From an uncultured Gammaproteobacteria bacterium (GTDB lineage Bacteria; Patescibacteriota; Microgenomatia; Woykebacterales; RBG-16-39-9b): DNA of 64,000 nucleotides. Below are positions 169-53,845 of this stretch, one piece after another. The notes under the pieces are model-generated. The model saw nothing but the letters and a program-made list of their open reading frames with translations, was not told the DNA's origin and did no database searches. Both the position numbers and the translations under genes were made by a program. How positions within the stretch are numbered: position 1 is the stretch's first letter; each line of letters opens with the position of its first letter. Where the stretch lies: contig CAYIWY010000006.1 of assembly GCA_964367355.1 (NCBI GenBank), positions 15,968 to 79,967 on the forward strand. Reading direction: 5' to 3'.

Positions 169-1950
169 TTATGACTTAAGGTGTTTAAACTGTGCTTTAT
201 ACATCTGCTCAATTTCTTTAACCGTCGTCGCATCCTCAGCTCTTTTGGAACTGCCCCGGAATGAAACTAATCTTGGAAAACGCAGTGCGTACCCGGGCTC
301 ATCATCTTTCTTTCCAGCCGTATGTAAAGGGCTGCGGGTGATCTCATCGGCAAATATTTCCAAAACAATTTCCGGTTCAACCCAAACTGAAGGCGTTATT
401 AAAGAGTTAACCCGGGCGCTCTTGTGGTCAAGTTTATTTTTGTCAGCCATTTCTTTTACTTTCCGCCACTCATCGTCTGTCAGACCAGTCCCGATTCTGC
501 TAATTGACTCGAAAGTATCTTCCTTATCGTTGTAAACCCCGACCAAAAGTCCACCCACGCCAAAATTAGTCCGTTTTCCGGTGCCAAAAATGTAACCGAG
601 CACAACACAGTCAACCGTATCGGAAAGTTCTCCGCCAATCATCCGTTTGAACTTGATCCAGTTAAAATTTCGCGCACCGGCTTGATAGGGTGAATCTAAT
701 TTCTTAATCATCACCCCTTCCAACCCTTCGGTTATCGCCTCTTCAAATTGTGTCGTTAGGTCACCCGCACTGTGGGCAATCTTACCGATTGCTTCCATAA
801 CCGTAACCGAATCATCCCGAATAATATCTTTTAGCTTCCTTCTACGTTCTTCGTATGAGAGCTTGGTAATATCTTTTCCGTTTAAATAAAGCAAATCAAA
901 ACAAAACAGTTTCAAAGGCATTTTTTCAGCTGCTTCTGCCACTCCATACTTACGACGGCGCTTAGTGGTTTCCTGAAATGGCAAGAACTCACCAGTTACT
1001 GGATTATAAGCAATCGCTTCTCCCTCCAAAATTACACTTTTAGCCTCAATTTCTTCCTTAGAACCTTGAACTAGGTCTGGAAAAGAATTGGTAAAGTCTT
1101 CGAGATTTCGGGAAAAAATCCGGATTTTGTCACCATCAATGTGCACTTGGCAACGAAAACCATCAAATTTTGGCTCGACCGCAAAACTGTCACCCATTCT
1201 TTTAACAACTGCTTCTGCATCAGGCAAACGTTCTGCCAAGGCGGGACGCATTGGTTTACCAACTTGAAGTTCCACCTGATCAATCGCTTTTATTCCTTTC
1301 TCCCAAAAAACCTTGGCGACAAATCCAAGGTCGCTGGTTTTGTTGTAGGCTTCTTCGAGATTTTTACGCAAACTTTTATCTTTAACTTTGGCGGTTGACA
1401 GCGCGTCTAAAACTGTCGGATCACCAATTCCAAGCCTAGTCAACCCGAGCGGCACGCGTACTAAATGTTTGGCACCAGCGGGATTAACTTTTTTTAAAAT
1501 GTCAGCAAACTGGGAGATTTTCTTCTCCACTGAACCTTCACCGTTAGTTTGAGCAATTTTTAATAAAACTTCATGAACATCACTGACCGATACATCTGAA
1601 TTCTTAACTTTTGCGTCAGCAAATGCTGCGCTTCCAGGCGCATGTTTTAATTCTGAGTTCAATTTCTGAGCGGCTAACCCCTGGTCTCCGGTTTTCTCGG
1701 CCAGTTTAGCCACTTTCTCCCGATCGATAACGTAGGCTAAGGCTATCGCTTGTTCAACTGTTTTTTCGGCCATACCAATCTCAGTTGAATCAAAAAAAGG
1801 CACGACCCTTCCTTGAATTAAGTAACAAATTTTATCAATCTCGTTGGCATCTGAATTAACAAAAACTTCTGATAGTATTTGTATCAGTTCGTTACGTTTT
1901 GTTTCGGATTCAAGTTTTTCAAAATAATCGGCTAGCTTTGAGAATTTCAT
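169..1950 (-). CDS. ATP-dependent DNA ligase
   Basis: 593 aa; adenylation motif I KxDG (EPKFDGFRCQVH); ligase-like OB-fold tail; clean ATG start MKFSKLADYF. Confidence 0.85.
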   Translation of the reverse strand: MKFSKLADYFEKLESETKRNELIQILSEVFVNSDANEIDKICYLIQGRVVPFFDSTEIGMAEKTVEQAIALAYVIDREKVAKLAEKTGDQGLAAQKLNSELKHAPGSAAFADAKVKNSDVSVSDVHEVLLKIAQTNGEGSVEKKISQFADILKKVNPAGAKHLVRVPLGLTRLGIGDPTVLDALSTAKVKDKSLRKNLEEAYNKTSDLGFVAKVFWEKGIKAIDQVELQVGKPMRPALAERLPDAEAVVKRMGDSFAVEPKFDGFRCQVHIDGDKIRIFSRNLEDFTNSFPDLVQGSKEEIEAKSVILEGEAIAYNPVTGEFLPFQETTKRRRKYGVAEAAEKMPLKLFCFDLLYLNGKDITKLSYEERRRKLKDIIRDDSVTVMEAIGKIAHSAGDLTTQFEEAITEGLEGVMIKKLDSPYQAGARNFNWIKFKRMIGGELSDTVDCVVLGYIFGTGKRTNFGVGGLLVGVYNDKEDTFESISRIGTGLTDDEWRKVKEMADKNKLDHKSARVNSLITPSVWVEPEIVLEIFADEITRSPLHTAGKKDDEPGYALRFPRLVSFRGSSKRAEDATTVKEIEQMYKAQFKHLKS

Positions 1951-4271: not shown

Positions 4272-5420
4272 CTACTTCACCGACTCTCCAATCCAATCTT
4301 GAACAGTCACGCCTGGGTGCTGATTAAGAGCCGAAACGAGACCTTGATTAATCTGATGAGCGATTAGAGGTCCTTCATAAATCGCTCCTGTCCAAACCTG
4401 AACCGCCGTTGCTCCGTTGAAAATCTTAGTTAGCGCATCAATTGCGTTAAAGATTCCACCGGCGGCAATGATAGTTAGCTTTCCCTGTGTATGCTGATAA
4501 ATGTACTTAACAATCGCTGTCGACATGACGGAAAGCGGACGTCCACTCAAACCACCAACTTCGTCCCGATTTTGGCTCATCAGTCCTACACGTCGGAAGG
4601 TTGTGTTAGTCGCGATAACCCCCTGAATGTCGCGAGCAGTGATAACATCAAGCACGTCGTCGAGTTGCTCCCAGGTCAGGTCTGGAGCAATCTTGACGAA
4701 AATAGGTTTGCCAGGGAAAAACCCCGCTCTTGCTTTCAACAACTCGTCGAGTAGGTTTGCGAACGCGTCTCGGTGCTGAAAATCACGCAGACCAGGTGTG
4801 TTGGGTGAACTTACATTGACAGCGATATACTGTCCACGACGCGCCAATTGCTTGGCAACGACAACGTAGTCAGCTACTGCTTGTCCCAAGTCCACACTAA
4901 TCTTGTTCGCACCGATACTTATACCTATTACAAAACTAGCCGGCATTTTCACTGACAGGTTTCTATCAACCACGGCAGCACCAGGACTGTTGAAACCCAT
5001 GCGGTTGATCAGTGCTCGATCTTCCTTTAACCGAAAAACTCTTGGCTTAGTGTTACCTATCTGGGCTACCGGCGGAACAGTCCCTTCTTCGACGTGACTG
5101 AACCCAAGTGAGTTCAACGCACGTGGTGCGAGACCGAACTTATCGAAACCGGCTGCCATACCAACCGGACTCCGCAACCAAAGGTCTGGAGCAATCTGTA
5201 CTCGCAGTCGCGGATCGGTTGGAATAAACAATCGCCCAACAAGTCTTGAAAACAGTGGGACTTGACCGTAAAGATGAGCGAGCCGTAAAGTTCGTTCATG
5301 AACAGTTTCTGCATCCAACCTAGACAGGAGTGGAAAGATAACTGACTTGTACACTAAATCAACCTCCCTACTTTGACGCCAAGAATTTCTCCCTAACGAC
5401 CCTCGGATTTTAAAGTGCAA
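4272..5420 (-). CDS. pyrD: Dihydroorotate dehydrogenase (quinone), class 2
   Basis: GFDKFG, NRMGFNSPG, IGANK motifs of class-2 DHODH; N-terminal membrane-association extension; true start may be slightly internal. Confidence 0.8.
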   Translation of the reverse strand: MHFKIRGSLGRNSWRQSREVDLVYKSVIFPLLSRLDAETVHERTLRLAHLYGQVPLFSRLVGRLFIPTDPRLRVQIAPDLWLRSPVGMAAGFDKFGLAPRALNSLGFSHVEEGTVPPVAQIGNTKPRVFRLKEDRALINRMGFNSPGAAVVDRNLSVKMPASFVIGISIGANKISVDLGQAVADYVVVAKQLARRGQYIAVNVSSPNTPGLRDFQHRDAFANLLDELLKARAGFFPGKPIFVKIAPDLTWEQLDDVLDVITARDIQGVIATNTTFRRVGLMSQNRDEVGGLSGRPLSVMSTAIVKYIYQHTQGKLTIIAAGGIFNAIDALTKIFNGATAVQVWTGAIYEGPLIAHQINQGLVSALNQHPGVTVQDWIGESVK

Positions 5421-5445
5421 AAAAAACTGCTCAAGGGGCAGTTAA
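5419..5445 (-). terminator. Rho-independent terminator downstream of the fic gene
   Basis: AACTGC-loop-GCAGTT stem followed by T-run on the minus strand. Confidence 0.4.
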
Positions 5446-5519
5446 CTACCGCAGTATAAACTGATGTTTGCAAAAAATGAAGTTGCTATTTCAAAACATA
5501 TCTCGGAAGATCATTTTGG

Positions 5520-6578
5520 CTACTTCAAAATGTAAACCGCAGCTTTAGTTGAACCACGTTTTTTGACAATTTTATTAACCATTAACCCTCTCAAATCCCG
5601 CAAGATAGTGTCATCAGAAACCATTGGAAATAATTCGCGAAAAATCGAATTATTTATTTGACTATTTTTATCTAAATACTCAATGATTTTAATTTGGCGG
5701 CTGTTTAAGGCAATTTGCCCTTGCTTCCCTTTCAGCCGGAGGTCGATTGAAAGTTTTTTAACTTTTTCTTTGATCCGGTTAATTTCAACTGATAATCCTT
5801 CGGTAAAGTATTCCAGCCAAGTTGTTAAATCTCGCTCTGACTCATCGACAATCAACTGATCAGAGGCGGACTGCAAAGCTTTGTAGTAACCGGCAATATC
5901 CTGATCGTAATATTCTTCCAAAGAAAAGAAGCGCTTCACATCGTAATCATCTTTAAAAAGACTCAAGGTTGCCACTGCCCTGGCGGTTCGACCATTGCCT
6001 TCAGTAAAAGGGTGGATGCGGACAATTTCGTATAAAGTAATTCCGGCTTTAAGAATCGGTGAAAGTTTCTTGGCTTCAGAGGAGTTTAACCAAGTTAAAA
6101 GATTTTCAACTTGAGTATTAATCTCGATTGGATCCGGTGGTGTGAAAGTAACTTGCCCAGTTTCAACTCCACGAACGACAACCTTAACCAACCGAAAACT
6201 ACCAACCTGGTCTTCGGGCACAAGTTTCTGAACTGTGAGTTTGTGAACCTGGAGAAGAGTTTCTTTGTCAATCTCGTCTTTGTTCTTACCTTCTTTATTA
6301 ATAAAATCAACAACGTTGCGGTAATTTAAGACTTCTTGAATATCTCTAGACCTAGCTTCGATTTGTTTACCTTCAATTACGTCTTTAGCTTCATCAAGTG
6401 TCAGGTCATTTCCTTCAATATGGGTTCCGTAATGAACTGCTCGAGTGAGCGCGTCTTCACGAAACTTTTCTTCCCAGACTGGAACTAGGGGTGAATTTTC
6501 GATAATCTCGCGCGCGGTTTCAATCTTGGCGACATTAGTTAAAATGGAATTTGTAATAACAAACTTTGGGTTGAACAT
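5520..6578 (-). CDS. Fic family protein (AMPylator/Doc-like) with C-terminal winged-helix region
   Basis: Canonical Fic motif HPFTEGNGRTARA. Confidence 0.85.
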   Translation of the reverse strand: MFNPKFVITNSILTNVAKIETAREIIENSPLVPVWEEKFREDALTRAVHYGTHIEGNDLTLDEAKDVIEGKQIEARSRDIQEVLNYRNVVDFINKEGKNKDEIDKETLLQVHKLTVQKLVPEDQVGSFRLVKVVVRGVETGQVTFTPPDPIEINTQVENLLTWLNSSEAKKLSPILKAGITLYEIVRIHPFTEGNGRTARAVATLSLFKDDYDVKRFFSLEEYYDQDIAGYYKALQSASDQLIVDESERDLTTWLEYFTEGLSVEINRIKEKVKKLSIDLRLKGKQGQIALNSRQIKIIEYLDKNSQINNSIFRELFPMVSDDTILRDLRGLMVNKIVKKRGSTKAAVYILK

Positions 6579-6695
6579 TGGAGTAATTATATCCCGCTAA
6601 AGCGTGATGTATTTTTCCTTAAGTCAAATTATAGCAGATAACCGCAGTATTACCGCAAAAAGAAAGACCGCCCCAGAAAAAATTTCTGAAACGGC

Positions 6696-6920
6696 CTAGC
6701 TACTCCTTTCTTTTACCCATTCACAACCAATGTGGCAAACGAGACAACGCCACCAATTCCTGTCAGCTGAAACTTTAGCCATGGCACCGTGATTTGAACA
6801 AGTCGGATATTCACGGCTGTAAAAAATAGCTAAACCAAACTCACCAAAGTCACCTTTAGGGTGAGTCATCGGAAGTTCCGTTAACCGCTCGCTCCGTACC
6901 CAAGTTGCTTGCCAGTCCAT
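6696..6920 (-). CDS. Small Cys/His-rich hypothetical protein (possible zinc ribbon)
   Basis: 74 aa; YPTCSNHG ... WWRCLVCHIGCEW; sits at the edge of a GC-rich islet. Confidence 0.35.
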   Translation of the reverse strand: MDWQATWVRSERLTELPMTHPKGDFGEFGLAIFYSREYPTCSNHGAMAKVSADRNWWRCLVCHIGCEWVKERSS

Positions 6921-7048
6921 CTCTCCTCCTTCTCTTACCTGGCTGGTAAGTTTGGTTATATTTTAACACAAGCGTGCAAACAACTCTTATAAGACATTGT
7001 TAAATATTATTTACAATTTAATTTCACTTGGCTATAAGTCTCTAAAAC

Positions 7049-7082
7049 TTGACAAGTAATCTTATAGTTGTATACTGCTCTT
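7049..7082 (+). promoter_or_regulatory. Sigma-70-like promoter for the 7267 gene
   Basis: TTGACA - 16 nt - TATACT. Confidence 0.5.
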
Positions 7083-7266
7083 CAAGAAATCCAAAATGAG
7101 GATTAGGAATCAGCTGATTCCGAAAAAGGAAGGGCGGCTCGGGAGGTGTCTATAGATCGTCTAAGGTAGCCCCAAAGGATGCGCGAGGGCAAAATAATCT
7201 CGTCCAGATTTTGGGCAAAGACTTTAGCCGTCGAAGGGACACGACGTGTAAATCAAGGGAAAAACA

Positions 7267-8163
7267 ATGAGATCTCGTCTAATCATCTTTGTGTTCGCAA
7301 TGTTCGCAGTGTTCGCCATTGCGTCCACTTCTGTCGGGCAAGGAAAATCCACAGACCAGCAAGAGAAGTTTGTGGCTACCGAACCGCTTTCGGATCAGGT
7401 TCAGGTGCTTGTAAGCATTGTCGCCGAAAACGACAGCAACCCGATTCTCGTTAGTTCGAACAAGCGTAAGCAACGCGAAGCGACCTGCGAAAACCCTGAA
7501 GTCATGACAACCCTGGCGGTGTCTGAGGAAGAGCGAGATGCTTCTATCGAAGAGGCGACACAACGTCTTCCCCACGATGTTACTCCGGAAGAAGTTGAGG
7601 AAGTCAAGGCTGCGGCTCCGGCCCAAGAATTCACTCGTCAGGTCTACGTCGACAACGCTGAGGCTATCGGCGACCCACCCGACCCGAATCAGGATCAGGA
7701 TGGAAAGAAGTTCGAAGCGTGGGTTGAGAAGGTGAAGAAGGCTGGATGCAACACCCAGGCTGTTCCCTCAACGGGGGGACGACTTGCTTCACCGGCGGCC
7801 CAATACTTCACTTCCGGGTGGAAGTCGTGCACAAACTCCACCTGGACTACCAATTCGGTTGGTGCCACGCTGGTCAAACTGACTCAGACTTCGCAGTGGT
7901 ACGTTGACTCCCGCGGTGTGCCCTACTACCCGTCGCGCTCCTTCTACTCTTACGCAGGGTGGGGTTGGGACGAAAAAGGTGCCCCCCAAGGCCAAACCGG
8001 AGTGGTTACGATCTGGTATGGAAGTCCGCTTCAGTACTACAACTGGACTGGGCAGAACTTCCACTTTTCGCGTTTCGGGATCGAGCTGTTCACGAAGTAC
8101 CTCAGGGTAGATCAGTACTTTGGTTATCAAGGAAGGTGTGGTATTTTCCCATGGCGGCCATGA
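7267..8163 (+). CDS. Secreted hypothetical protein (signal peptide; Trp/Tyr-rich C-terminal region), GC-rich
   Basis: MRSRLIIFVFAMFAVFAIASTSVGQG signal peptide; coding GC about 52% against about 38% surroundings; no recognisable catalytic motif. Confidence 0.6.
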   Translation: MRSRLIIFVFAMFAVFAIASTSVGQGKSTDQQEKFVATEPLSDQVQVLVSIVAENDSNPILVSSNKRKQREATCENPEVMTTLAVSEEERDASIEEATQRLPHDVTPEEVEEVKAAAPAQEFTRQVYVDNAEAIGDPPDPNQDQDGKKFEAWVEKVKKAGCNTQAVPSTGGRLASPAAQYFTSGWKSCTNSTWTTNSVGATLVKLTQTSQWYVDSRGVPYYPSRSFYSYAGWGWDEKGAPQGQTGVVTIWYGSPLQYYNWTGQNFHFSRFGIELFTKYLRVDQYFGYQGRCGIFPWRP

Positions 8164-8315
8164 TGTCGAACAACTGGAAGAAGTTGATCGTACTCATCGT
8201 ATTCGTGGTTCTGCTTATTGCGGCTTGGTTCATTTGGGCACGACCAGCTGAAGACCACCGCGACGGCAACGAAGGCAGCAGCATCGTCCTCTATTCCACA
8301 ACCTTGAGGACATGA
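8151..8315 (+). CDS. Small single-TM protein overlapping the end of the secreted-protein gene
   Basis: ATG at 8151; MAAMMSNNWKKLIVLIVFVVLLIAAWFIWARP... Confidence 0.35.
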   Translation: MAAMMSNNWKKLIVLIVFVVLLIAAWFIWARPAEDHRDGNEGSSIVLYSTTLRT

Positions 8316-8415
8316 CACGAGAGAGAGACTCGTTACAAAAAACCGAGTCTGTAGCAACAATCTGGCGTGGGATTCAAAATAAACTCCGCCAGGATCAGGT
8401 TCGGTAAGATAGTTT

Positions 8416-8459
8416 GGGCGGGTACTTGTCAGCAATGACTCTTACCCGCCTCTTTTTTT
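8416..8459 (+). terminator. Rho-independent terminator
   Basis: GGGCGGGTA ... TACCCGCC stem followed by TCTTTTTTT. Confidence 0.6.
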
Positions 8460-8827
8460 GTCCACACATCTCTTTTGTGGATAAAAATATTTACCGCACT
8501 TTTACCGCAACAACTAAATTATTTATTTTTCTAATAAAGTTAGTACACTTTTTCAGTACAACTCAATTAATGTCCTTTAAATTGGGCGACTTGAACCTAA
8601 ATTTTGACTTTCTCCTCTAACCAATCTCTATAAGTCTAGTTTTAATTTGCGCTTTTAAGTCCTAGAGTAATTTGCCTATGGGTTAGATGGTGCGTTTTTA
8701 GGTTGCTTTAGGGTCGGAGTTAATTTTAATTAGTGAATTTCTAAGGCTAGAAAACGCCTTGCGGACTTCTAAAGGCTCTAAAAAGAAAAGACCAGCGAGA
8801 ACAACAGTTCCACTGGTCTTTGAATTA

Positions 8828-15960: not shown

Positions 15961-17307
15961 CTAGAGACTCCAAGTCTTTTCTTTTACTCCGTTTAAAATA
16001 AGATCTACCACCTCCACTCCTTGCATTGTCGTGTGGTCTGTATTACTAATTTCGTATTTCCAAGCTCCAAAACGTCCCCGGGAATAGACCCTCCTTTTTA
16101 ATAATTCGCTCTGGACTTTATTAAGAATACCATCCCGCTCTAAAGAAGGAGTTGGGTAACCGTAAGGAACATCGAGTGACCAGGTGCTGACAATCTTTTC
16201 TCGCGATTCGATTAGTTTTGTGTTCAACATCCCTTTGATTGTTTCTTCAATTATAGTCTCTTTTTCGATTTTTTTGCTTGTTGAATAAGAAATTTCCGCC
16301 ATCAAAGACCAGTGTCCTTTCGGAACATTATTTGGTGAATAATTTGAAAAAACTGTTACCCGATAAAACGGGCAGTTACTTTCTGGAAAATACATCCAGC
16401 ATTTTGTTTTGAGTTTTTTTGGAACAGAGCCTTTCAAACCAATGCCGACGATCACATCTCCGGAGTGCTTCAGGTTTTTAACCGCAGTATGCATTGGCTT
16501 TGGCAAATCCGATTTCCAAATAAATTGGTCAAGTGGCATTGAACTAATTAAATGGTCGTAACTGTCTTTGGAACCGTCAATAAAAGTTATTTCTTTCTTG
16601 GTCGTATCGATTTTTTCAACCTTTTCATTTAAGCTCAAATTTCCCTTTATCCTCTCGCCGACTCTCAGGGCAATATCACCAATCCCGTTATTAAGTGGGA
16701 ATTTGAACTTATTGTTCGGTCCCCAACCAAACTCATCTTTTTCTAAAATAATATTTTCCAGAACTTTGCTGATATTTACCAGACTGACTCTTTCTCCAAC
16801 CCAGTTTGTACTCATTGTTTCCAAGGGAAACGCCCAGACTTTCTTGTTGTAAGGCACCATGAAATACTTCATTATTCCTTTCCCAAGTATCGACTGGTTT
16901 AGCTGTAGAAAATTCTTTGGTTTTTTCTTAGGATCGTAGTTTTGTGTGGCTTCAACCAATCCTTCAACACATTCCAAAATAACTTTTTTTGGTAAATAAC
17001 GGATATTATTTTGAAACGGATAGGGAACAAACCGATCTTGCAGCCAAACCCAAGCCTCCCGAACCAGTTCGGTGTATTGACCTTCAAGAACTTTTTCCAA
17101 ATAATCGTCGAAATATTTGTAATGGGAAAAAAGAACGTGACCACCAACGTCCCAAGTAAAACCATCTTTTTTAAAACTGGCAGCCAAGCCTCCTGGAAAA
17201 GCTTCTTTTTCGTAAAGGTGCCAATTATCATATCCAAGCTCATTTAAACGATAAGCCGCTCCTAAACCTGTAGGACCGGCACCAATTATCAAAATTCTTT
17301 TGCTCAT
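15961..17307 (-). CDS. FAD/NAD(P)-binding oxidoreductase, UDP-galactopyranose mutase-like
   Basis: ILIIGAGPTGLGAAYRL Rossmann motif; GGHVLF motif; 448 aa. Confidence 0.55.
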   Translation of the reverse strand: MSKRILIIGAGPTGLGAAYRLNELGYDNWHLYEKEAFPGGLAASFKKDGFTWDVGGHVLFSHYKYFDDYLEKVLEGQYTELVREAWVWLQDRFVPYPFQNNIRYLPKKVILECVEGLVEATQNYDPKKKPKNFLQLNQSILGKGIMKYFMVPYNKKVWAFPLETMSTNWVGERVSLVNISKVLENIILEKDEFGWGPNNKFKFPLNNGIGDIALRVGERIKGNLSLNEKVEKIDTTKKEITFIDGSKDSYDHLISSMPLDQFIWKSDLPKPMHTAVKNLKHSGDVIVGIGLKGSVPKKLKTKCWMYFPESNCPFYRVTVFSNYSPNNVPKGHWSLMAEISYSTSKKIEKETIIEETIKGMLNTKLIESREKIVSTWSLDVPYGYPTPSLERDGILNKVQSELLKRRVYSRGRFGAWKYEISNTDHTTMQGVEVVDLILNGVKEKTWSL

Positions 17308-37387: not shown

Positions 37388-37774
37388 CTAAGAGGCACCT
37401 TCGAAGAATTTCTTAACCTCATCAACTACTTGTGATGGGGTGTAGGAAACTTTCAGTAAATAACCATCCGCTCCAAGCTCAAAACCTTCTTTAATGATCG
37501 TTTCTTCTCCAAGGTTGGTTAAAAGTAGTACAGGAATTTTTTTAGTCAGCTCGTTCTCTTTCAAGGCTCGGAGAACTTCAATTCCGCTCATCTTGGGAAG
37601 CATAATATCAAGCAGCATAATATCAGGTTGTTCCTCACCAGCTTTAAGGAGACCCTCTTCCCCATCTTGGGCAACGACAACAGTGTAACCGTTGTTCAAA
37701 AATTCGTGACGATAAATCTCTCTTACGGAGTCCTCGTCGTCAACGACTAAAATTTTCTTAACTTTATCTGCCAT
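37388..37774 (-). CDS. Stand-alone response-regulator receiver (CheY-like) protein
   Basis: KILVVDDE, phospho-acceptor Asp in LLDIMLP, conserved T and K; no output domain. Confidence 0.85.
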   Translation of the reverse strand: MADKVKKILVVDDEDSVREIYRHEFLNNGYTVVVAQDGEEGLLKAGEEQPDIMLLDIMLPKMSGIEVLRALKENELTKKIPVLLLTNLGEETIIKEGFELGADGYLLKVSYTPSQVVDEVKKFFEGAS

Positions 37775-38832: not shown

Positions 38833-39597
38833 TTAATTCCTGTATGGGACGTAGACAAAAGTAACGACTAACATTCCCCCCAAAGCAACTGCCAGAACCA
38901 AATCAAGGGCGATTTTGACTTTCGTGCCATTGCTGATGCCGTTGACTGTCTCTGGTCCGGTTCCGGTCTGCGGCAAAACGATTTTCGGTGTTGCAATCGG
39001 AACAACGTGAGTCGTCGTGATCGCAACCACCCGAGTCGAAGTAGCACTCGGCGGTACTGTTGTTGACGTTGCACTCGACGGAACCGACGTGCTTGTCGGT
39101 GTCGTCGGGGTACTGGTCACTGTCGGTGTTACCGGCGTTGACGTCTTCGTCGGCGTGTTTGTCACCGTTGCCGTAACAGTTGCCGTCGATGTAGAAGTTG
39201 GCGTTGGCGGCTTCGTGCAGGGCTTAAAGCTGTCACTTTTTTCTGGTGTTGCGGTTTGTTCAACTCGAATTGAATTGATACCTCCACGCGCGTTGGAAAT
39301 ATCCAACGGCCCGAAGGAAACCATGCCACCCTCTTTACCGGCAACAACTGTTATCTTCTGACGACTTCCAGGTATTTCTACCCAGAAACCTTCACTCGGG
39401 CGATGATCGGTGACATAAATGTCAAAGCTCCCTGCAACGGGAACCCCGATTTCACCGACCACACGACCGTTTTCATCGCATTCGGCGTGAATACTCCAAG
39501 CATAAGCTGGAGTAACTGAAATTGCACCCCAAACCGTGACCAAAGATAGGGCCAAGAGCGGGGTGACTAGGACAAGCCTAATCCATGACCTTTTCAC
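38833..39597 (-). CDS. Secreted Thr/Pro-rich surface protein with LPXTG-type sorting signal
   Basis: Signal peptide; TPTxT repeats; LPQTG then hydrophobic segment and charged tail. Confidence 0.55.
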   Translation of the reverse strand: MKRSWIRLVLVTPLLALSLVTVWGAISVTPAYAWSIHAECDENGRVVGEIGVPVAGSFDIYVTDHRPSEGFWVEIPGSRQKITVVAGKEGGMVSFGPLDISNARGGINSIRVEQTATPEKSDSFKPCTKPPTPTSTSTATVTATVTNTPTKTSTPVTPTVTSTPTTPTSTSVPSSATSTTVPPSATSTRVVAITTTHVVPIATPKIVLPQTGTGPETVNGISNGTKVKIALDLVLAVALGGMLVVTFVYVPYRN

Positions 39598-39728: not shown

Positions 39729-40346
39729 TTGTTATGCAAAGCTAAAGTTCTTATTTATTTTATTTGTAATGGGTATGATAATATTTTAGATGTGAACAGA
39801 AACAAAAACTTTAACTGGAATTCAATCAGAAACTTATTTTTACTAATAATTTTGGTAATTCTGCTAGTACCGTTGTTAATGATTGGTTATTTTGCCTACA
39901 ATTACCACAATCTTCCCGGAAAAAACAAAGCTCAACCAAACCCAACCAACAAACAACTGGCAAACGGCCAGACTTCTGGTTCACAAAATGAAAACCAAAG
40001 CTCAACCCCACCAACAGCGAAAATTATCCTTACTAATTCCGATCCAAACCAACCTGCATTAACCTCAGATTCTCCCGAGAATCAAACTCCTCCATCACCT
40101 CCGCCCAGTGATCCTAACCCACCACCAACACCGCCACCCCCACCCTCGCCACCCTGCCCTAAAGAATTTATTGGTACTGTAGTCTCCATTTCCGGAAATC
40201 AAGTCACTTTCAGCTACGGTGATTCACAAAGTGTAGCTATTCTGCTAACAAAAACTTCACCGGGTACTTTACCACCTGGTACCGTAGCTCATGTTCACGC
40301 AAAATTACAAAATAATGTTTGTGTAGAAGATGAGATAGAGCTTTAG
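39729..40346 (+). CDS. Membrane-anchored Pro-rich hypothetical protein
   Basis: TM then PPSPPPSDPNPPPTPPPPPSPP; start codon uncertain. Confidence 0.45.
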   Translation: MLCKAKVLIYFICNGYDNILDVNRNKNFNWNSIRNLFLLIILVILLVPLLMIGYFAYNYHNLPGKNKAQPNPTNKQLANGQTSGSQNENQSSTPPTAKIILTNSDPNQPALTSDSPENQTPPSPPPSDPNPPPTPPPPPSPPCPKEFIGTVVSISGNQVTFSYGDSQSVAILLTKTSPGTLPPGTVAHVHAKLQNNVCVEDEIEL

Positions 40347-40351
40347 CAGAT

Positions 40352-41581
40352 TTAATTTATTACCGAAGAAAGATTGAAAGAGAGATCAGCTAAGTTAACC
40401 TTGAAAGAGGTTATTTTAGTTTTATCCTTTATTAGTTTAGTTATCGCATTTCTGTCAACTGGAAGGTTTATTAGACTCGCCCCAACAATTGTTTCTTCCC
40501 GAATTAAGAGCCGTCCAAGCTTTTTATCAGCTAGGCTGCCGCGTTCAATTAGTTCGGTGTTCTCATCAACCATCGGGTCCCCAAGGAAAGAAAAGTTGCT
40601 ATCAAATATATTTATTGAGTACATACTTGTTGTCTCGAAGACTTCTCTTTGCCCAACCATATTTAACCCTGCAGCTCGACCTTGGGAAGAAGCGTTGGCC
40701 CAATTACCTAAAGAATGGGTGCGCTTAAAAACTACATCGTAAAATTCCGCCACATCACCTGCTGCCCAAACACCGGGAGCAGTAGTTTCTAAATACTCAT
40801 TTGTTAAAACACCTTTATTTAAGTTTATTCCGGAATCTTTTAAATACTCAATATCCAAATGAATTCCAATCCCGACTCCGGCAATATCAGCTTTAATTAT
40901 TGAACCAGTATTCACTTTGATCCCTTCCAGTTTTGCCTCACCGACGAACTCGACTGCTTGAGTTTCAGTTAATATTTGCACTCCATTATCAATCAAAAGT
41001 TGTGACAAAAGTTTTCCGGAGTTCTCCCCGACAACTGGTTCCCAAAAAGATTTCTCGCGAATAATTGCTGTTGTTTTAAGGCCGTTTTTAATAAAACTCT
41101 GGGCAAACTCAATCCCAATAAAACCGCCGCCCAAGACAACGGCTTCCTTACTACGAGCCATTATTTCTTTAATTTTTTTTGCGTCTTCCAGGGTTCTCAT
41201 ATAAACAACTTCCGGGAAGTTGCCCCCAGGGGTTGGCAATTTATTTACTTTACCTCCGGTTGCGATTAGTAGTTTTTCGTAATTAAAAGTTTGGTTATCG
41301 CTAGTTGTCACCAGCTTACTTTGTACATCAACTTTAACAACTCTGAGGTTTGTCAAAAATTGGATATTTTTTTGTTGGTAATTTTCCGGTGTGCGAACAA
41401 ATAAACTTTCGAGGGTGTTCTCGTTTCTGAGAAAATGTGGGACAAGTACCCGAGAATAAAGCCGGTCAGCTTCTTCGGTAATAATTGTTATTGTTGCATT
41501 TTGGTTTTTAGAGCGGATTTCTTCAGCTGCAGTTGTGCCGGCTATTCCTCCACCAATGATTAGAAAATCAACTTTAGTCAT
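40352..41581 (-). CDS. FAD-dependent pyridine nucleotide-disulfide oxidoreductase family (ferredoxin/rubredoxin reductase or NADH oxidase-like)
   Basis: DFLIIGGGIAGTTAA (FAD) and AVVLGGGFIGIEFA (NAD(P)) Rossmann motifs; 409 aa. Confidence 0.8.
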   Translation of the reverse strand: MTKVDFLIIGGGIAGTTAAEEIRSKNQNATITIITEEADRLYSRVLVPHFLRNENTLESLFVRTPENYQQKNIQFLTNLRVVKVDVQSKLVTTSDNQTFNYEKLLIATGGKVNKLPTPGGNFPEVVYMRTLEDAKKIKEIMARSKEAVVLGGGFIGIEFAQSFIKNGLKTTAIIREKSFWEPVVGENSGKLLSQLLIDNGVQILTETQAVEFVGEAKLEGIKVNTGSIIKADIAGVGIGIHLDIEYLKDSGINLNKGVLTNEYLETTAPGVWAAGDVAEFYDVVFKRTHSLGNWANASSQGRAAGLNMVGQREVFETTSMYSINIFDSNFSFLGDPMVDENTELIERGSLADKKLGRLLIREETIVGASLINLPVDRNAITKLIKDKTKITSFKVNLADLSFNLSSVIN

Positions 41582-41797
41582 TTATGGGTAAACTTGCTTT
41601 CCAGTCGGGTCGGTTAATATAATTGCTGCCACTGGACAGGTTTGAGCTGCTTCTTTGAGAGCATCGTCACTATCAACACCCTGGGCTATTACGACCGATT
41701 TACTCTCCGTATCCAATTGAAACGTTTTGGGAGCTAATCGAACACAATCACCAGATCCAATACAGAGATTACGATCAACTTTAGCAGTAAAGGGCAT
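41582..41797 (-). CDS. Small single-cluster ferredoxin
   Basis: 71 aa; CIGSGDC ... CP Cys ligands; paralog at 52679-52888. Confidence 0.7.
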   Translation of the reverse strand: MPFTAKVDRNLCIGSGDCVRLAPKTFQLDTESKSVVIAQGVDSDDALKEAAQTCPVAAIILTDPTGKQVYP

Positions 41798-41798
41798 G

Positions 41799-42701
41799 TT
41801 ATTTTTTCTCCTTAAAAAAATTATACCATTTTTTTGTTGGTTTTTCTGAAAGGGTGTTTGCCTGTGTACTGTTTACGGAAACCTTAGCGTCACTATCCTT
41901 GGAAATATCATCAACGATTTTCATTATGACCTCAGGTGATGGCTTGCTGGGAAAATCCAGTTTAATATCATAGCTTTTAGCGCTTGGGTCCAACTTTTCT
42001 TCTGGTTTTGACTTTAAACCAACTCGCTTACGGTAAACCTTAAACAACCGATAAACTATACCAAAAATTGCAAGGGCTAAGAAAGAAAAGTATAGCGTTC
42101 GAAACAACGGTTTCGTACTATCTCCACCCCCAAAAAAAGCGTGATAAACAATTAAAAACAGGGCCAAGTAGTTTATAATGTGCAACGGGCGCCACCATTT
42201 TTTACCAGTTACTCCAGGAACATGTGTAATTAAAGTATTAAAAGCAATTGTAATTAAAGCAATAAGTCCGGCAAATAATATGTTACTGGTTGCAGTCCAA
42301 GCTATGTTTGTCGGCAATAAACTGGCGATTTTAAAGTTAATTCCAAGACGGTTTTGATACAGTAGGTAGATAACAAAGTGTGAGATTGCCATACCGACAC
42401 CAACAGAAGAGGTCCATTTGGTATGGACTTCCCAAAATGAGGCGTTCTTGTAAAGAACGATTAGGAAACCTCGCAAGGCTCCGAGCACCATCGTAATACC
42501 GATCAAAACAAAAGCAAGAATTCCGGTTAACCTCAAGAAAAAAAGATAAATTGTTGCCTTGGTCAAAATTTCTGTCGCTTTTGTGGATCCGGAAATAAGT
42601 AAGAAAAAGGCATAAAACAAAGAGATAAGTGCAAAGATAACCAGAGTGAGAAAAAATGTTCCAATTGCAATGAGAGCAGCTTTTTTTATCATAGTTGACA
42701 A
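41799..42701 (-). CDS. Ferric-reductase-like transmembrane domain protein (putative bis-heme b)
   Basis: Six predicted TMs; His pairs H-x14-H in TM3 and H-x12-H in TM5 (PLHIINYLALFLIVYH); 80-aa hydrophilic tail. Confidence 0.5.
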   Translation of the reverse strand: MSTMIKKAALIAIGTFFLTLVIFALISLFYAFFLLISGSTKATEILTKATIYLFFLRLTGILAFVLIGITMVLGALRGFLIVLYKNASFWEVHTKWTSSVGVGMAISHFVIYLLYQNRLGINFKIASLLPTNIAWTATSNILFAGLIALITIAFNTLITHVPGVTGKKWWRPLHIINYLALFLIVYHAFFGGGDSTKPLFRTLYFSFLALAIFGIVYRLFKVYRKRVGLKSKPEEKLDPSAKSYDIKLDFPSKPSPEVIMKIVDDISKDSDAKVSVNSTQANTLSEKPTKKWYNFFKEKK

Positions 42702-43345
42702 GTTGGGTCAGTTGGCGCTGGCAGTGTGTAAATATAAAGAGCAATTCTTTGCCAGCAACCTAGGCCTGCGTGTTTACTTAAATAAATATTTGTCATGTTT
42801 GTTGGGGCAGATAATGTCCCGCACTGAAAACTACTACTCTTGTGAGTATGTTTTTTCCCGGAGGTTTGATCGTTAACGGACACATTGACGGCAGATTGCA
42901 TATTGTAGAGATACCCATTTACGGTGATAAAACAGCCTGACGGTGCTGGAGGCGGGGTTGCTGGCGGTGGTGTAGCTGGTGGCGGACTGCTCGATGGTGG
43001 TGAACTTGCTGGTGGGTTTTGAGTGGTTCCGCTCGATGCGGGTGGGTTTGTAGTGGAACTATTGGCAGCATTATTTGCCGGAGGATTTTGGGTGTTTTCA
43101 GTCGTCGAGGAGTTTGGGGTAGTACTTGTAGCATTGGGGTTACTAGTGTTTGAATTAACCATAGTCAAGTTTCCGGTTTTGAAGGTTGTACTTCCAATAG
43201 AAACTTTATAAACACTGTCGGCAACATAGGTAAACGTAAGAGTGACTGTGATAGATAGACAGGTTAAAAATATTGCCTCAATTAACCAACCTTTAAGAAA
43301 AAATGCTTTTACTTTTTGAAAAAATGCTCTTATTTTAGTAATCAC
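42689..43345 (-). CDS. Membrane-anchored Ser/Thr/Pro-rich hypothetical protein
   Basis: N-terminal TM; low-complexity PPATPPPATPPPA linker; Cys-containing C-terminal region. Confidence 0.4.
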   Translation of the reverse strand: MITKIRAFFQKVKAFFLKGWLIEAIFLTCLSITVTLTFTYVADSVYKVSIGSTTFKTGNLTMVNSNTSNPNATSTTPNSSTTENTQNPPANNAANSSTTNPPASSGTTQNPPASSPPSSSPPPATPPPATPPPAPSGCFITVNGYLYNMQSAVNVSVNDQTSGKKHTHKSSSFQCGTLSAPTNMTNIYLSKHAGLGCWQRIALYIYTLPAPTDPTCQL

Positions 43346-43844: not shown

Positions 43845-44249
43845 TTAGTCCCCTAAAATACCCACAATTGGATACTTTTCTTTTATTATATCTCCCCCGA
43901 AGATTTTTAGCTGAGTTGTTGCATCCCTAGCTACAAGATAATGATAAGGTTTACCCTCCCCGTAGTACTGCTCTTTACCCGCAGTCACATCATAAACTAA
44001 ACAATCCAAACCAATATAAATGGTTGGGTCTTGCAATCCATTATGACTGAGTAGCTCTTCTTTAGAAATAGTTGGTAACTTAGCTAACATGGCTGAATTG
44101 GTGACCTCCTTGATAATCGCTTTGCACTCTGGCGGTGGTGAATAAAACCAGAAATAATAAATAACACCGGAAAAAACTATAAGAAACAAGATAATTATAC
44201 TGGTCGATCTGAATCTTGATTGTTTATTGAAAATTCTGACAGAAATCAT
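43845..44249 (-). CDS. Membrane-anchored cytochrome b5-like / MAPR-like heme-binding domain protein
   Basis: N-terminal TM; LVYDVTAGKEQYYGEGKPYHYLVARDATTQL resembles the b5/MAPR core (VYDVT ... FYGPGGPY ... AGRDAS). Confidence 0.5.
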   Translation of the reverse strand: MISVRIFNKQSRFRSTSIIILFLIVFSGVIYYFWFYSPPPECKAIIKEVTNSAMLAKLPTISKEELLSHNGLQDPTIYIGLDCLVYDVTAGKEQYYGEGKPYHYLVARDATTQLKIFGGDIIKEKYPIVGILGD

Positions 44250-44659
44250 TATTCTTCCGTCACCTCGAGGCTAGAAGGTGTAGTAAAAATTTCAAATGAA
44301 ACTCTTAGACTCAAAGCCAACAATATCACTAAATGAGCGAAAAACGATAGAACCAGAAAGTAGATCACACTGACCAAGTTCTCATCAATCCTCAATTTTG
44401 ATAAAAGATAGGCAAAAACCATTGTTGAAGCAACCCGCAGAAATAAAATTAACTTTTTTTCTCTGAGGAATTCTCGCCAAGGAGTTCTGTGAGAATAAAC
44501 AACAGCGAAATACACGTGAGTTAGGAAGAGAGCTACGAGATAAAGTTTCGTTAGGATAGCTGGCTTGTAGACCAGTATGGGGATGAGCAAAACTGAAGCT
44601 ATTACTAAAAGCAGAAGTTTTTTCCAAAATAATTCTTTATCAATTAACACCACTTTCAT
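44249..44659 (-). CDS. Small polytopic membrane protein
   Basis: Four hydrophobic segments. Confidence 0.4.
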   Translation of the reverse strand: MKVVLIDKELFWKKLLLLVIASVLLIPILVYKPAILTKLYLVALFLTHVYFAVVYSHRTPWREFLREKKLILFLRVASTMVFAYLLSKLRIDENLVSVIYFLVLSFFAHLVILLALSLRVSFEIFTTPSSLEVTEE

Positions 44660-52402: not shown

Positions 52403-52624
52403 TCATTTTTGTTTTCCTTTATTCAACCATTCGAGAAACCACTTTACAATCATTATCAAAACAAATACCCAGCTAAAATAATAAGCAAACAATACATACG
52501 TTCCTAAGATAAGTAAATCAATTGTAACTTTTTGAAGTTCATGTGGGAATAGAAGTTCATAAAGAATAGAAGTTGTTGAAAAAAGTAAATAAATTATCAA
52601 TAAGGCGAAGATTAGTTTTTTCAT
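52403..52624 (-). CDS. Small two-TM membrane protein
   Basis: 73 aa hydrophobic ORF. Confidence 0.35.
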   Translation of the reverse strand: MKKLIFALLIIYLLFSTTSILYELLFPHELQKVTIDLLILGTYVLFAYYFSWVFVLIMIVKWFLEWLNKGKQK

Positions 52625-52678
52625 TAATTTTTTATCACCTCTAAACTTCTTTTTGTTACAAAGGTTGATAAATATTGT

Positions 52679-52888
52679 TTAAGGAAAGATTTGTTTACCA
52701 TTTTCGTCTTCGAGAATAATCGCTAAAACCGGACAGCTTTTAGCAGCGTCAATAATTCTGTCATCTGGTGCTCCGTTTGGATCCTTAACCACAGCTTTTA
52801 GCTCGCTATCCAACTCGAAAACCTCTGGAGCAATGACACTGCAAGTTCCAGCACCAATACAAAGATTTCTATCAATTTTTACTTTCAT
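52679..52888 (-). CDS. Small single-cluster ferredoxin (paralog of 41582-41797)
   Basis: 69 aa; near-identical Cys spacing and length to the first ferredoxin. Confidence 0.7.
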   Translation of the reverse strand: MKVKIDRNLCIGAGTCSVIAPEVFELDSELKAVVKDPNGAPDDRIIDAAKSCPVLAIILEDENGKQIFP

Positions 52889-52921
52889 TCTCTTCCTTTT
52901 GATGAATGCAACATTCTGATT

Positions 52922-53845
52922 TTACCTTTCACGTAAAGCCTTTCGTAAAACCTTGCCTTGTCTGTATAAAACTGCAAGAGCTTGTTTTAACCAAACTTGA
53001 ATTTGTCTTTGATGATAAACGACAAAGTAAGCAATACTAGCATAAATAATCCCAGCAATAACATCAATGACATAGTGTTCTCCCAAATAAACAACCGAGA
53101 TCCAAACTAATACGGGGTAAATAAGGAAAGTATAACCAACCTTCTTATTAAAGCTTCTCAGTGCCAAAAAAGCCAACCAAGGGTAGGCTGAGTGCAAGCT
53201 TGGCATAGCCGCTACTTGATTTGGGTTGAGCTGGTGGTAAATTGTCGATAAATCCCAACCCCAGCCAATCTGAGAAATAACAATGTCAATTATTTTTTTG
53301 ATCTCGATTAGATGAGCGTTCTGAGCGGCATACCAAGGTGGGGCTGCGGGATAAAATAAAAAAGTGATAAATCCTGAAAACGATAGGAAAAGGAGAGCAA
53401 TTACAAATTTCCAATAAGACTTTTTGTCCTTTATCCATAAATAAAACGCAACAACTAAAGGCAGTGGAAAATGAAGAAAATCAATAATTACAGCGGCAAT
53501 ATCCCAAGGTGCAATCTGGGCTGGATTGAAAAAGATTTTTTGCAGTTCAACGCCAGGTAAAAAACCAAAGAGTGACTGTTCCAGATTCACTAATTCGGCA
53601 ATATGCACCTTAAAACCAGCTGTATCAACAAAACCACGCAGCATCTCATAGCTAAGCAATAAAGCGATGAAGGGTACCCAGTCTCTTAAAAAACTTTTGG
53701 TCCGACCAATTATCACTGCCCCGAAAAGTAGGATAACAAAAAACCGGTCTGGGGTAATCGAAATATTGCGGCTCAACATAAAAAATACAATCGAGAGCAA
53801 ATACCCGATTAATAAAATATTGATGATTTTATTACGCTCAAACAT
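52922..53845 (-). CDS. PAP2-superfamily integral membrane protein (Aur1/Ipt1-like inositol phosphotransferase-like)
   Basis: PSLHSAYPW (PSGH-like) and HYVIDV motifs; polytopic. Confidence 0.55.
   Translation of the reverse strand: MFERNKIINILLIGYLLSIVFFMLSRNISITPDRFFVILLFGAVIIGRTKSFLRDWVPFIALLLSYEMLRGFVDTAGFKVHIAELVNLEQSLFGFLPGVELQKIFFNPAQIAPWDIAAVIIDFLHFPLPLVVAFYLWIKDKKSYWKFVIALLFLSFSGFITFLFYPAAPPWYAAQNAHLIEIKKIIDIVISQIGWGWDLSTIYHQLNPNQVAAMPSLHSAYPWLAFLALRSFNKKVGYTFLIYPVLVWISVVYLGEHYVIDVIAGIIYASIAYFVVYHQRQIQVWLKQALAVLYRQGKVLRKALRER

Follow-up and report, generated by a model that had tools for sequence, protein, structure and literature searches.

A split ferric-reductase-like gene module with a probable role in transmembrane electron export, and the exchange of its candidate electron donors among relatives

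The window analysed here (the whole stretch of 64,000 nucleotides, positions 15,968 to 79,967 of contig CAYIWY010000006.1) carries on its minus strand a run of genes in which a divergent membrane protein of the FRD superfamily, to which the NOX and FRE enzymes also belong, is followed by a small ferredoxin and a flavoprotein reductase and preceded by three membrane-anchored proteins whose domains are predicted to face outward. We propose, at a probability of roughly 0.6, that this module, with at least six genes all in one direction, carries electrons out across the membrane, most likely for the reduction of metal at the cell surface prior to uptake. The strongest argument comes from the relatives of this locus, where two unrelated NAD(P)H donors are found at the same position beside the same FRD protein, implying that these neighbours feed it. 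An earlier note, made from the letters of the window, had read the FRD, ferredoxin and reductase genes as a split transmembrane electron shuttle; this reading is supported, and nothing in the checks that were run refutes it.

For ultra-small groundwater bacteria, believed to be without respiratory chains and most cofactor synthesis, both the supply of iron and heme and the handling of reducing power are little understood. The window matches contigs of a 0.1-µm-filtered Hainich groundwater metagenome, and the locus offers a complete, testable inventory of the components for a transmembrane electron path in an organism of this kind.

Organization of the module

The genes are listed in the order of transcription.

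44249..44659, minus strand: four-transmembrane protein, 136 aa, its stop overlapping the start of the MAPR-like gene
43845..44249, minus strand: membrane-anchored MAPR-like cytochrome b5, predicted cytb5MY type, 134 aa
43345..43839, minus strand: anchored extracytoplasmic protein p160, 164 aa
42689..43345, minus strand: anchored extracytoplasmic protein with a C-terminal Cys4-His2 domain, 218 aa
41799..42692, minus strand: FRD membrane protein, divergent, putatively bis-heme, 297 aa from the ATG at 42692
41582..41797, minus strand: single-cluster ferredoxin, 71 aa
40352..41581, minus strand: FAD/NAD(P)H ferredoxin reductase of the putidaredoxin-reductase/BphA4 type, 409 aa

The last three genes are where the earlier note had put them, as minus-strand open reading frames at 42701-41799, 41797-41582 and 41581-40352, and they are as tightly packed as it had claimed: the FRD and ferredoxin genes meet at TAA-C-ATG (a 1-nt gap), and the ferredoxin and reductase genes at TAA-ATG (a 0-nt gap). 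The TTG at 42701 that had been taken as the FRD start (300 aa) is probably three codons too long. The ATG at 42692 is the likelier start, since gene callers and all homologues begin there, and it shares an ATGA overlap with the stop of the 218-aa gene. What does not hold is the limit of the operon to three genes: their tight coupling stands, but three further same-strand genes (encoding the 218-aa, 164-aa and MAPR-like proteins) lie upstream of FRD at spacings of -4 to +5 nt, so that the functional unit comprises at least six genes, from 44249 to 40352. The cytochrome b5/MAPR-like gene had indeed been noticed, though as a neighbour 1.3 kb downstream; it exists at 43845-44249, but lies 1.1 kb away, transcriptionally upstream, in the same string of genes.

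A promoter scan gave sites no more numerous than in shuffled sequence, and a terminator scan gave about twice the shuffled count, with most of the sites inside genes. Because both scans were uninformative, we set the operon boundaries by gene spacing alone. Going upstream from the MAPR-like gene, the gene for the 136-aa four-transmembrane protein comes first, and sufU and sufS follow. The 136-aa gene is present in the window and in the related locus L016 (loci are numbered with the prefix L throughout) and absent from L001 and L014, and a family search with its product returned no match; it is doubtful that it belongs to the module, as it occurs only in the window's own lineage. In L016 the public gene calls (1603-1848 and 1893-2348) leave the MAPR-like protein with 81 aa and p160 with 151 aa, thereby dropping the N-terminal transmembrane anchors; homologues at other loci back the longer, anchored forms.

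Conservation of gene order and exchange of the donor among relatives

A scan of the GTDB representative genomes gave one locus, a duplicate of L001, and a scan of metagenomes added four loci; a small number of independent lineages is represented among the FRD loci. The genes for p160 and the Cys4-His2 protein lie directly upstream of FRD in all relatives with enough flanking sequence, and in most of them the MAPR-like gene lies ahead of this pair. What differs is the cytoplasmic donor, and on this basis the loci fall into two clades and one distant member.

In clade A (49-100% identity to the window FRD protein) the order is p160, Cys4-His2, FRD, ferredoxin, reductase, with the MAPR-like gene preceding this block wherever the upstream flank is covered. 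This order is seen in the window together with L016 and L017, in L001 and L002, in L014 and L015, in L012 and, in part, in L013, and even L012, at 49% identity and with flanks unrelated to Suf, keeps it. Hence the expectation of the earlier note that the three-gene order would be kept in relatives is borne out, with ferredoxin and reductase genes directly downstream of FRD at every clade-A locus. The distant L018, from an organism of 55.6% GC, also keeps p160, Cys4-His2, FRD, ferredoxin and reductase, with the gene of a CBS-pair protein added between those for FRD and ferredoxin. In the part of L018 that is covered, no MAPR-like gene was seen. In the same locus (5026-8799, plus strand) the module is followed by co-directional genes for a ChdC-family protein (Chlor_dismutase), HemB (ALAD), HemE (URO-D) and ferrochelatase, which are steps of the coproporphyrin-dependent heme pathway.

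Clade B (six loci, 37-44% identity) keeps the MAPR-like, p160, Cys4-His2 and FRD genes and carries extra p160 paralogues, yet neither the ferredoxin nor a Pyr_redox reductase was found in any of the six. The donor position is held instead by a 244-aa flavoprotein with FAD_binding_6 and NAD_binding_1 domains, like Fre and other FNR modules. It is this substitution of one NAD(P)H donor by another, unrelated one that argues most strongly for a link between the donors and the FRD protein.

Always between the FRD and FNR-like genes of clade B, on either strand, there is in addition a 95-aa protein beginning MCYNCDCGDP (CxxCxC). It is highly conserved, has no family match, and could be a metal-binding adaptor or regulator. 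Its positions are:

L005 8757-9044, plus strand: 95-aa CxxCxC protein
L006 8835-9122, minus strand: 95-aa CxxCxC protein
L007 8727-9014, minus strand: 95-aa CxxCxC protein
L008 6760-7047, minus strand: 95-aa CxxCxC protein
L010 3154-3441, minus strand: 95-aa CxxCxC protein

The FRD membrane protein

The two histidine pairs described in the earlier note are present as H93-x14-H108 and H174-x12-H187 (codons at 42423-42425, 42378-42380, 42180-42182 and 42141-42143, respectively). As expected of heme ligands, all four are invariant in 14 aligned homologues (37-100% identity) and are found in 21 of 21 family members; a further histidine, H160, is not conserved. The six transmembrane segments that had been predicted correspond to six long helices in an AlphaFold2 model, with the histidine pairs on helices 3 and 5, while the C-terminal 75 residues are unconserved and modelled at low confidence. 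The four histidines place the protein with the two-heme NOX/FRE type, unlike MsrQ and STEAP, which hold one heme plus a flavin, and their invariance rules out a one-heme protein of the MsrQ/STEAP type.

The family to which the protein belongs is small, with 16 matches among 5.8 billion proteins, none of them with a Pfam domain, and six cluster representatives below 1e-30 among 1.84 billion. Its profile reaches 164 more distant proteins at E<=1e-3, and five of eight distant relatives sampled pass the PF01794 gathering score. The contig of P0022, the nearest PF01794-positive relative, ends at this point and gives no informative gene context. Aligned by hhalign, the family and these PF01794-reaching relatives match with a probability of 99.8% (E 3.8e-29) over 217 columns, with all four histidines aligned to four that are likewise invariant among the relatives; among the 165 proteins compared, the FRD family included, 84 have HHHH at these columns. 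The bis-heme FRD identity given in the earlier note is therefore upheld, by demonstrable homology to PF01794 members together with the four conserved histidines. Neither Pfam nor NCBIfam assigns the protein to an unrelated family: the signals obtained are a sub-threshold one to DUF4079 (E 0.035), the sole one in Pfam, and one to a four-helix protein.

The spacing of the histidines sets the family apart. All 21 family members, like the fusion protein P0028, have x14 on transmembrane helix 3 (TM3), as against x13 in 61 distant relatives, whereas on TM5 the spacing is x12 throughout, in family and relatives. P0028, which shares the x14/x12 spacing, is an FRD domain fused to FAD_binding_6 and NAD_binding_1; in the FRD protein of the window Pfam finds no FAD or NAD domain, and the dehydrogenase role falls to separate genes. 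The positive-inside rule predicts a cytoplasmic N-terminus and a cytoplasmic loop between TM4 and TM5, and the protein probably holds two b hemes; with this orientation, H93 and H174 would bind the inner heme and H108 and H187 the outer heme.

The cytoplasmic donors

Both donors conform to the description in the earlier note. The single-cluster ferredoxin matches Fer4_13 (E 1.2e-13, 51.9 bits against a cut-off of 24.5) and Fer4_15 (E 2e-11), and has three cysteines in all, in the motif C12-x2-S15-x2-C18...C54-P. Aligned to the ferredoxins of T. maritima and P. furiosus, it has Ser15 in place of the second cluster cysteine, and having three cysteines only, the protein is predicted to carry a cluster of the [3Fe-4S] type. 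The reductase is a two-Rossmann FAD/NAD(P)H protein (Pfam Pyr_redox_2, E 1.3e-55); the Reductase_C signal at its C-terminus is weak (E 7.8e-4, below the cut-off). In the PDB it is most similar, over residues 6-390, to putidaredoxin reductase (1q1r, E 2e-41). In NCBIfam it comes closest to ferredoxin-NAD+ reductases of oxygenase systems, all of them below their equivalog cut-offs, so that no specific named enzyme applies. The reductase has zero cysteines, which rules out a disulfide reductase.

A ferredoxin paralogue does lie at 52679-52888, as the earlier note had it, but it is 51% identical to the operon ferredoxin instead of near-identical; the PAP2-like neighbour is real (52922-53845, PAP2_3, E 4.5e-29). 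This second ferredoxin (CxxAxxC...CP) is placed between the PAP2_3 membrane protein and a 73-aa transmembrane protein (window 52403-53845, minus strand), directly upstream of sufC-sufB-sufD.

The outward-facing partners

Each of the three proteins encoded upstream of FRD has a single N-terminal transmembrane segment preceded by four K/R and no D/E residues; by the positive-inside rule, this places the N-terminus inside and the C-terminus outside, with the domains facing outward. The MAPR-like protein scores 25.7 bits with Pfam Cyt-b5 against a cut-off of 23.7, and its best PDB matches are PGRMC1 (4x8y, E 1.2e-5), an Arabidopsis MAPR protein and the archaeal cytb5M (6nzx). Its segment YYGEGKPY (Y96...Y102) aligns with FYGPEGPY of PGRMC1, whose tyrosines we take to be Y107 and Y113, with Y113 the heme ligand, and no HPGG motif is found in the sequence. 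Judged by these residues, the protein fits the cytb5MY type, with tyrosine and not histidine at the putative ligand positions.

The 218-aa protein consists of the N-terminal anchor, a Pro/Thr-rich linker and a C-terminal domain of 85 aa (42692-42946) with the conserved residues C138, H168, C175, H192, C197 and C216. In alignments, one of them of 19 sequences, the four cysteines and H192 are invariant and H168 nearly so, along with an invariant Tyr, Asn and Arg, in the motifs YN, Y, R and PxP-D-P-C. Homology searches of databases with this domain, as a single sequence and as an alignment, returned nothing. Two separate profile searches of the PDB each placed a cytochrome b5 domain first (3ks0, E 0.68, and 3lf5, E 1.8), neither of them significant, and an hhalign comparison with the MAPR-like alignment was negative (probability 0.2%). 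A cytochrome b5 fold is at most a candidate for this domain. The same Cys4-His2 domain also ends secreted dockerin and dockerin-discoidin proteins in clade-B loci, and copies of it were located as follows:

L005: 5834-6424
L006: 3775-4827 and 5301-6332
L007: 3850-4857 and 5391-6419
L008: 1707-2783 and 3266-4345
L018: 20-346 and 1133-1804

The remaining partner, p160, has no conserved cysteine or histidine in its alignment of 12 sequences. The sole match obtained for it, RnfG at E 1.8, was treated as noise. The window holds no paralogue of either p160 or the Cys4-His2 protein.

Proposed mechanism and competing explanations

Under the proposal of electron export for surface metal reduction, NAD(P)H would reduce the FAD of the putidaredoxin-reductase-type flavoprotein, which would pass electrons to the small [3Fe-4S]-type ferredoxin, and this ferredoxin would in turn dock on the cytoplasmic face of the divergent NOX/FRE-type FRD protein. 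Electrons would then move from the inner heme (H93/H174) to the outer heme (H108/H187), and the outer heme would reduce something held by the MAPR-like, p160 and Cys4-His2 partners. The most likely purpose would be the reduction of Fe(III) to Fe(II), possibly of heme iron or of Cu(II), at the surface for uptake, and in the window genome the reduced metal would feed the adjacent ZIP transporter and Suf Fe-S assembly genes. What the analysis shows is the families and folds, the invariant histidines, the coupling and conserved order of the genes and the replacement of the donor; the cofactor content, the direction of flow, the contact between ferredoxin and heme and the terminal acceptor are what we infer in this scheme. 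In the window and its close relatives the module is flanked by SufS, SufU, ZIP and FeS_assembly_P, in L018 by heme synthesis with ferrochelatase, and in L005 by a copper ATPase, CsoR and a cupredoxin. These flanks vary but share the theme of reduced-metal cofactors, which suggests metal reduction at the surface.

Several observations weigh against this proposal. The FRD protein has no match to PF01794 (Ferric_reduct) in Pfam even at E 0.1, its AlphaFold2 model is of moderate confidence (pLDDT 67.5), and the x14 spacing on TM3 in place of x13 reads, in the alignment, as a one-residue insertion. To our knowledge, a separate ferredoxin has not been described as the direct electron donor of any FRD system. 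Among the partners, p160 has no family match in Pfam, NCBIfam or the PDB, the Cys4-His2 domain has no significant match in any of the three, and its single-sequence AlphaFold2 model (pLDDT 41.7) shows no recognisable fold. The Suf/ZIP context, moreover, is found only in the close relatives (71-74% identity) and is absent in L012 and clade B; this neighbourhood may be lineage-specific and, being confined to close relatives, is a weak link on its own.

A bolder version of the proposal, which we hold only tentatively and consider rather unlikely, is a surface redox machine in which the FRD protein is fed directly by the free [3Fe-4S] ferredoxin and delivers to the Cys4-His2 domain and the MAPR-like heme protein, acting at the contact with a host or mineral. 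If this were true, the fusion of the Cys4-His2 domain to dockerin and discoidin modules would put redox chemistry at the point of contact with a host cell or mineral, and the machine, belonging to ultra-small bacteria and a few other lineages, would harvest host iron or heme, or discharge reducing equivalents in place of a respiratory chain. The idea of discharge may also stand by itself, with the module as a NOX-like outlet or one for extracellular electron transfer that regenerates NAD(P)+ where a respiratory chain is lacking, or that produces or removes reactive oxygen at the surface, with the surface proteins as conduits to O2, host quinones or minerals. We regard such dumping or oxidase activity as unlikely, as no O2 site is in evidence, the flanking genes (Suf/ZIP, heme synthesis, copper) point to metal-cofactor supply and not to redox balance, and a Tyr-ligated heme of the MAPR type is a poor outer-sphere electron carrier. 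Slightly less likely again is that the module serves to acquire or traffic heme, the MAPR-like and Cys4-His2 proteins binding scavenged heme and the FRD protein reducing ferric heme for its release. The Tyr positions of the PGRMC1 heme ligand are retained in the MAPR-like protein, the authors who described cytb5MY speculate that ferric heme is bound tightly and released on reduction (bioRxiv 10.1101/2021.11.17.468889), and the co-direction of the L018 module with heme-synthesis genes links it to heme metabolism. However, no heme transporter stands beside the module at any locus examined, the organism of L018 makes its own heme yet retains the module, and the MAPR-like gene was not seen in the covered part of that locus.

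The two remaining explanations concern what the FRD protein gives electrons to and whether it receives any from its neighbours. In the manner of MsrPQ, it could feed a surface repair or redox enzyme made up of p160 and/or the Cys4-His2 protein, for instance for the reduction of oxidised envelope proteins. The architecture parallels that of MsrQ with its soluble cytoplasmic reductase and periplasmic partner, and the flavoprotein of clade B is Fre-like, of the same family as the MsrQ donor; but the partners include neither a molybdoenzyme nor a protein with a recognisable catalytic domain, and the FRD protein has four histidines instead of the two histidines plus flavin site of MsrQ, making this improbable. 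We consider it very improbable that the ferredoxin and reductase are mere neighbours of FRD that serve, for example, the adjacent Suf assembly. In the window the module does sit between sufS-sufU and ZIP/FeS_assembly_P, and the second ferredoxin adjoins sufC. The pair nonetheless stays with FRD where the vicinity is free of Suf genes (L012, L013 and L018), the junctions are of 0-1 nt, and in clade B a different NAD(P)H flavoprotein takes the place of the pair.

Flanking genes and other observations

A lone response-regulator receiver is encoded at 37388-37774, about 2.6 kb downstream of the reductase gene, with no kinase adjacent. At the end of the operon the window encodes two surface-type proteins (38833-39597, minus strand, and 39729-40346, plus strand). 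One of them combines a linker rich in Thr and Pro with an LPQTG-like motif and a transmembrane segment at the C-terminus, which suggests a sortase substrate; the second, convergent one begins with a transmembrane segment, followed by a Pro-rich linker, and ends in a conserved domain. In L001 the position of the convergent protein is taken by its orthologue, and L014 has there an unannotated 249-aa open reading frame on the FRD strand.

Further from the module, the window encodes an ATP-dependent DNA ligase (169-1950, minus strand) and a dihydroorotate dehydrogenase (4272-5420, minus strand, 382 aa) with about 78 residues ahead of its DHO_dh domain. An N-terminal extension of this length is typical of the membrane-associated, quinone-dependent class 2 enzymes, which would be odd if the organism is without quinones, as is thought. 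In several clade-B loci, Ku and LigD lie a few kb from the module (L006 1-2124, L007 1-1385, L008 868-1668), probably by coincidence.

The sole GTDB-representative genome with the FRD family is that of L004/L001 (CAYHXX010000005.1). Like the window, it has around the locus small anchored proteins, a type IV pilin and no Fe-S assembly system other than Suf. The genome is titled 'uncultured Gammaproteobacteria bacterium', a label that may be wrong.

Significance and comparison with known systems

The analysis adds four things to what has been described: an FRD subfamily that is PF01794-negative and has x14 spacing; the identification of FRD donors and of their swap; two conserved partner families, p160 and the Cys4-His2 protein; and the fusion of the Cys4-His2 partner domain to adhesion-type modules. 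Because the FRD family falls below the Pfam threshold, many such clusters will have been missed by Pfam-based surveys. The p160 and Cys4-His2 families are the likely business end of the module at the surface, and the MAPR-like partner bears on the debate over a prokaryotic origin of the eukaryotic PGRMC/MAPR proteins.

A close published counterpart lies in the Candidate Phyla Radiation (CPR), where PF01794 is carried by 1427 of 7645 genomes and CPR-specific MAPR-like genes with a Tyr ligand co-localise with PF01794 genes (pFre) and two atypical cytochrome-b5-like proteins, the proteins of these clusters all being membrane-anchored (bioRxiv 10.1101/2021.11.17.468889). The operon described there consists of cytb5MY, pFre, CBLA, CBLB and a two-component system; no cytoplasmic donor is named, and the word 'ferredoxin' is absent from the text (bioRxiv 10.1101/2021.11.17.468889). 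A ferric-reductase-like membrane protein, a cytochrome b5 and a ferredoxin-oxidoreductase-like protein were listed for a WWE3 genome of the CPR in 2013 (PMC3812714). Our module resembles these clusters in having a MAPR-like gene beside ferric-reductase-like and anchored proteins in small-genome groundwater bacteria, and differs in that the window FRD protein is PF01794-negative and no full two-component system is adjacent; p160 and the Cys4-His2 protein are possible counterparts of CBLA and CBLB. The locus supplies candidates for the cytoplasmic donors, a point left open when ferric-reductase/MAPR-like clusters were first described.

The best structural matches of the FRD protein are NOX/FRE enzymes (SpNOX 8qq7, csNOX5 5o0t, yeast FRE1 and NOX2). 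It shares with them the core of six transmembrane helices, two histidines each on TM3 and TM5 for stacked b hemes and the x12 spacing on TM5, and we propose that here, too, electrons derived from NAD(P)H would cross the membrane. Unlike in NOX, there is no fused FAD/NADPH dehydrogenase, the donor being a separate flavoprotein with a ferredoxin or, in clade B, an FNR-like protein; unlike in NOX/FRE, the spacing on TM3 of the window protein is x14 and not x13, and the protein falls below the PF01794 threshold.

MsrQ (YedZ) of E. coli has one heme (H91/H164) and FMN at the inner site, and is fed by the separate soluble flavin reductase Fre, passing electrons to the extracytoplasmic MsrP (PMC12525009). 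The statement in the earlier note that MsrQ-like systems carry all parts in a single protein is hence mistaken, as MsrQ uses a separate reductase (PMC12525009). Like MsrQ, the module combines an FRD-superfamily protein that has no dehydrogenase of its own with a separate flavoprotein, Fre-like in clade B, and with extracytoplasmic partners; unlike MsrQ, it has four invariant histidines and, in the window's clade, an interposed ferredoxin. No MsrP-like molybdopterin-enzyme domain was found among the neighbours in the window and in the relatives' loci scanned. A split module is less unusual than the earlier note suggested, and ours is a new variation on a known type of system, since both a split FRD system (MsrQ with Fre) and the FRD/cytochrome-b5 clusters of the CPR were already published.

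The donor arm recalls yet another group of systems. Like putidaredoxin reductase with putidaredoxin, and like the actinobacterial FdR/3Fe-4S chains, it pairs a reductase of the same family with a small Fer4_13/Fer4_15 ferredoxin, and a CYP51-ferredoxin fusion (6mcw) is among the PDB matches of the operon ferredoxin (CxxXxxC...CP). Unlike in the P450 and Rieske-oxygenase chains, there is no P450 or oxygenase in the operon, and the position of the acceptor is taken by the membrane FRD protein. Fe-S centres are known as electron-transfer agents on FRD proteins from FRD-FNR-Fer2 and Rieske fusions (PMC3591440). Those fusions carry [2Fe-2S] or Rieske centres, whereas the module described here combines a free-standing ferredoxin, predicted to be of the [3Fe-4S] type, with a flavoprotein of the glutathione-reductase fold.

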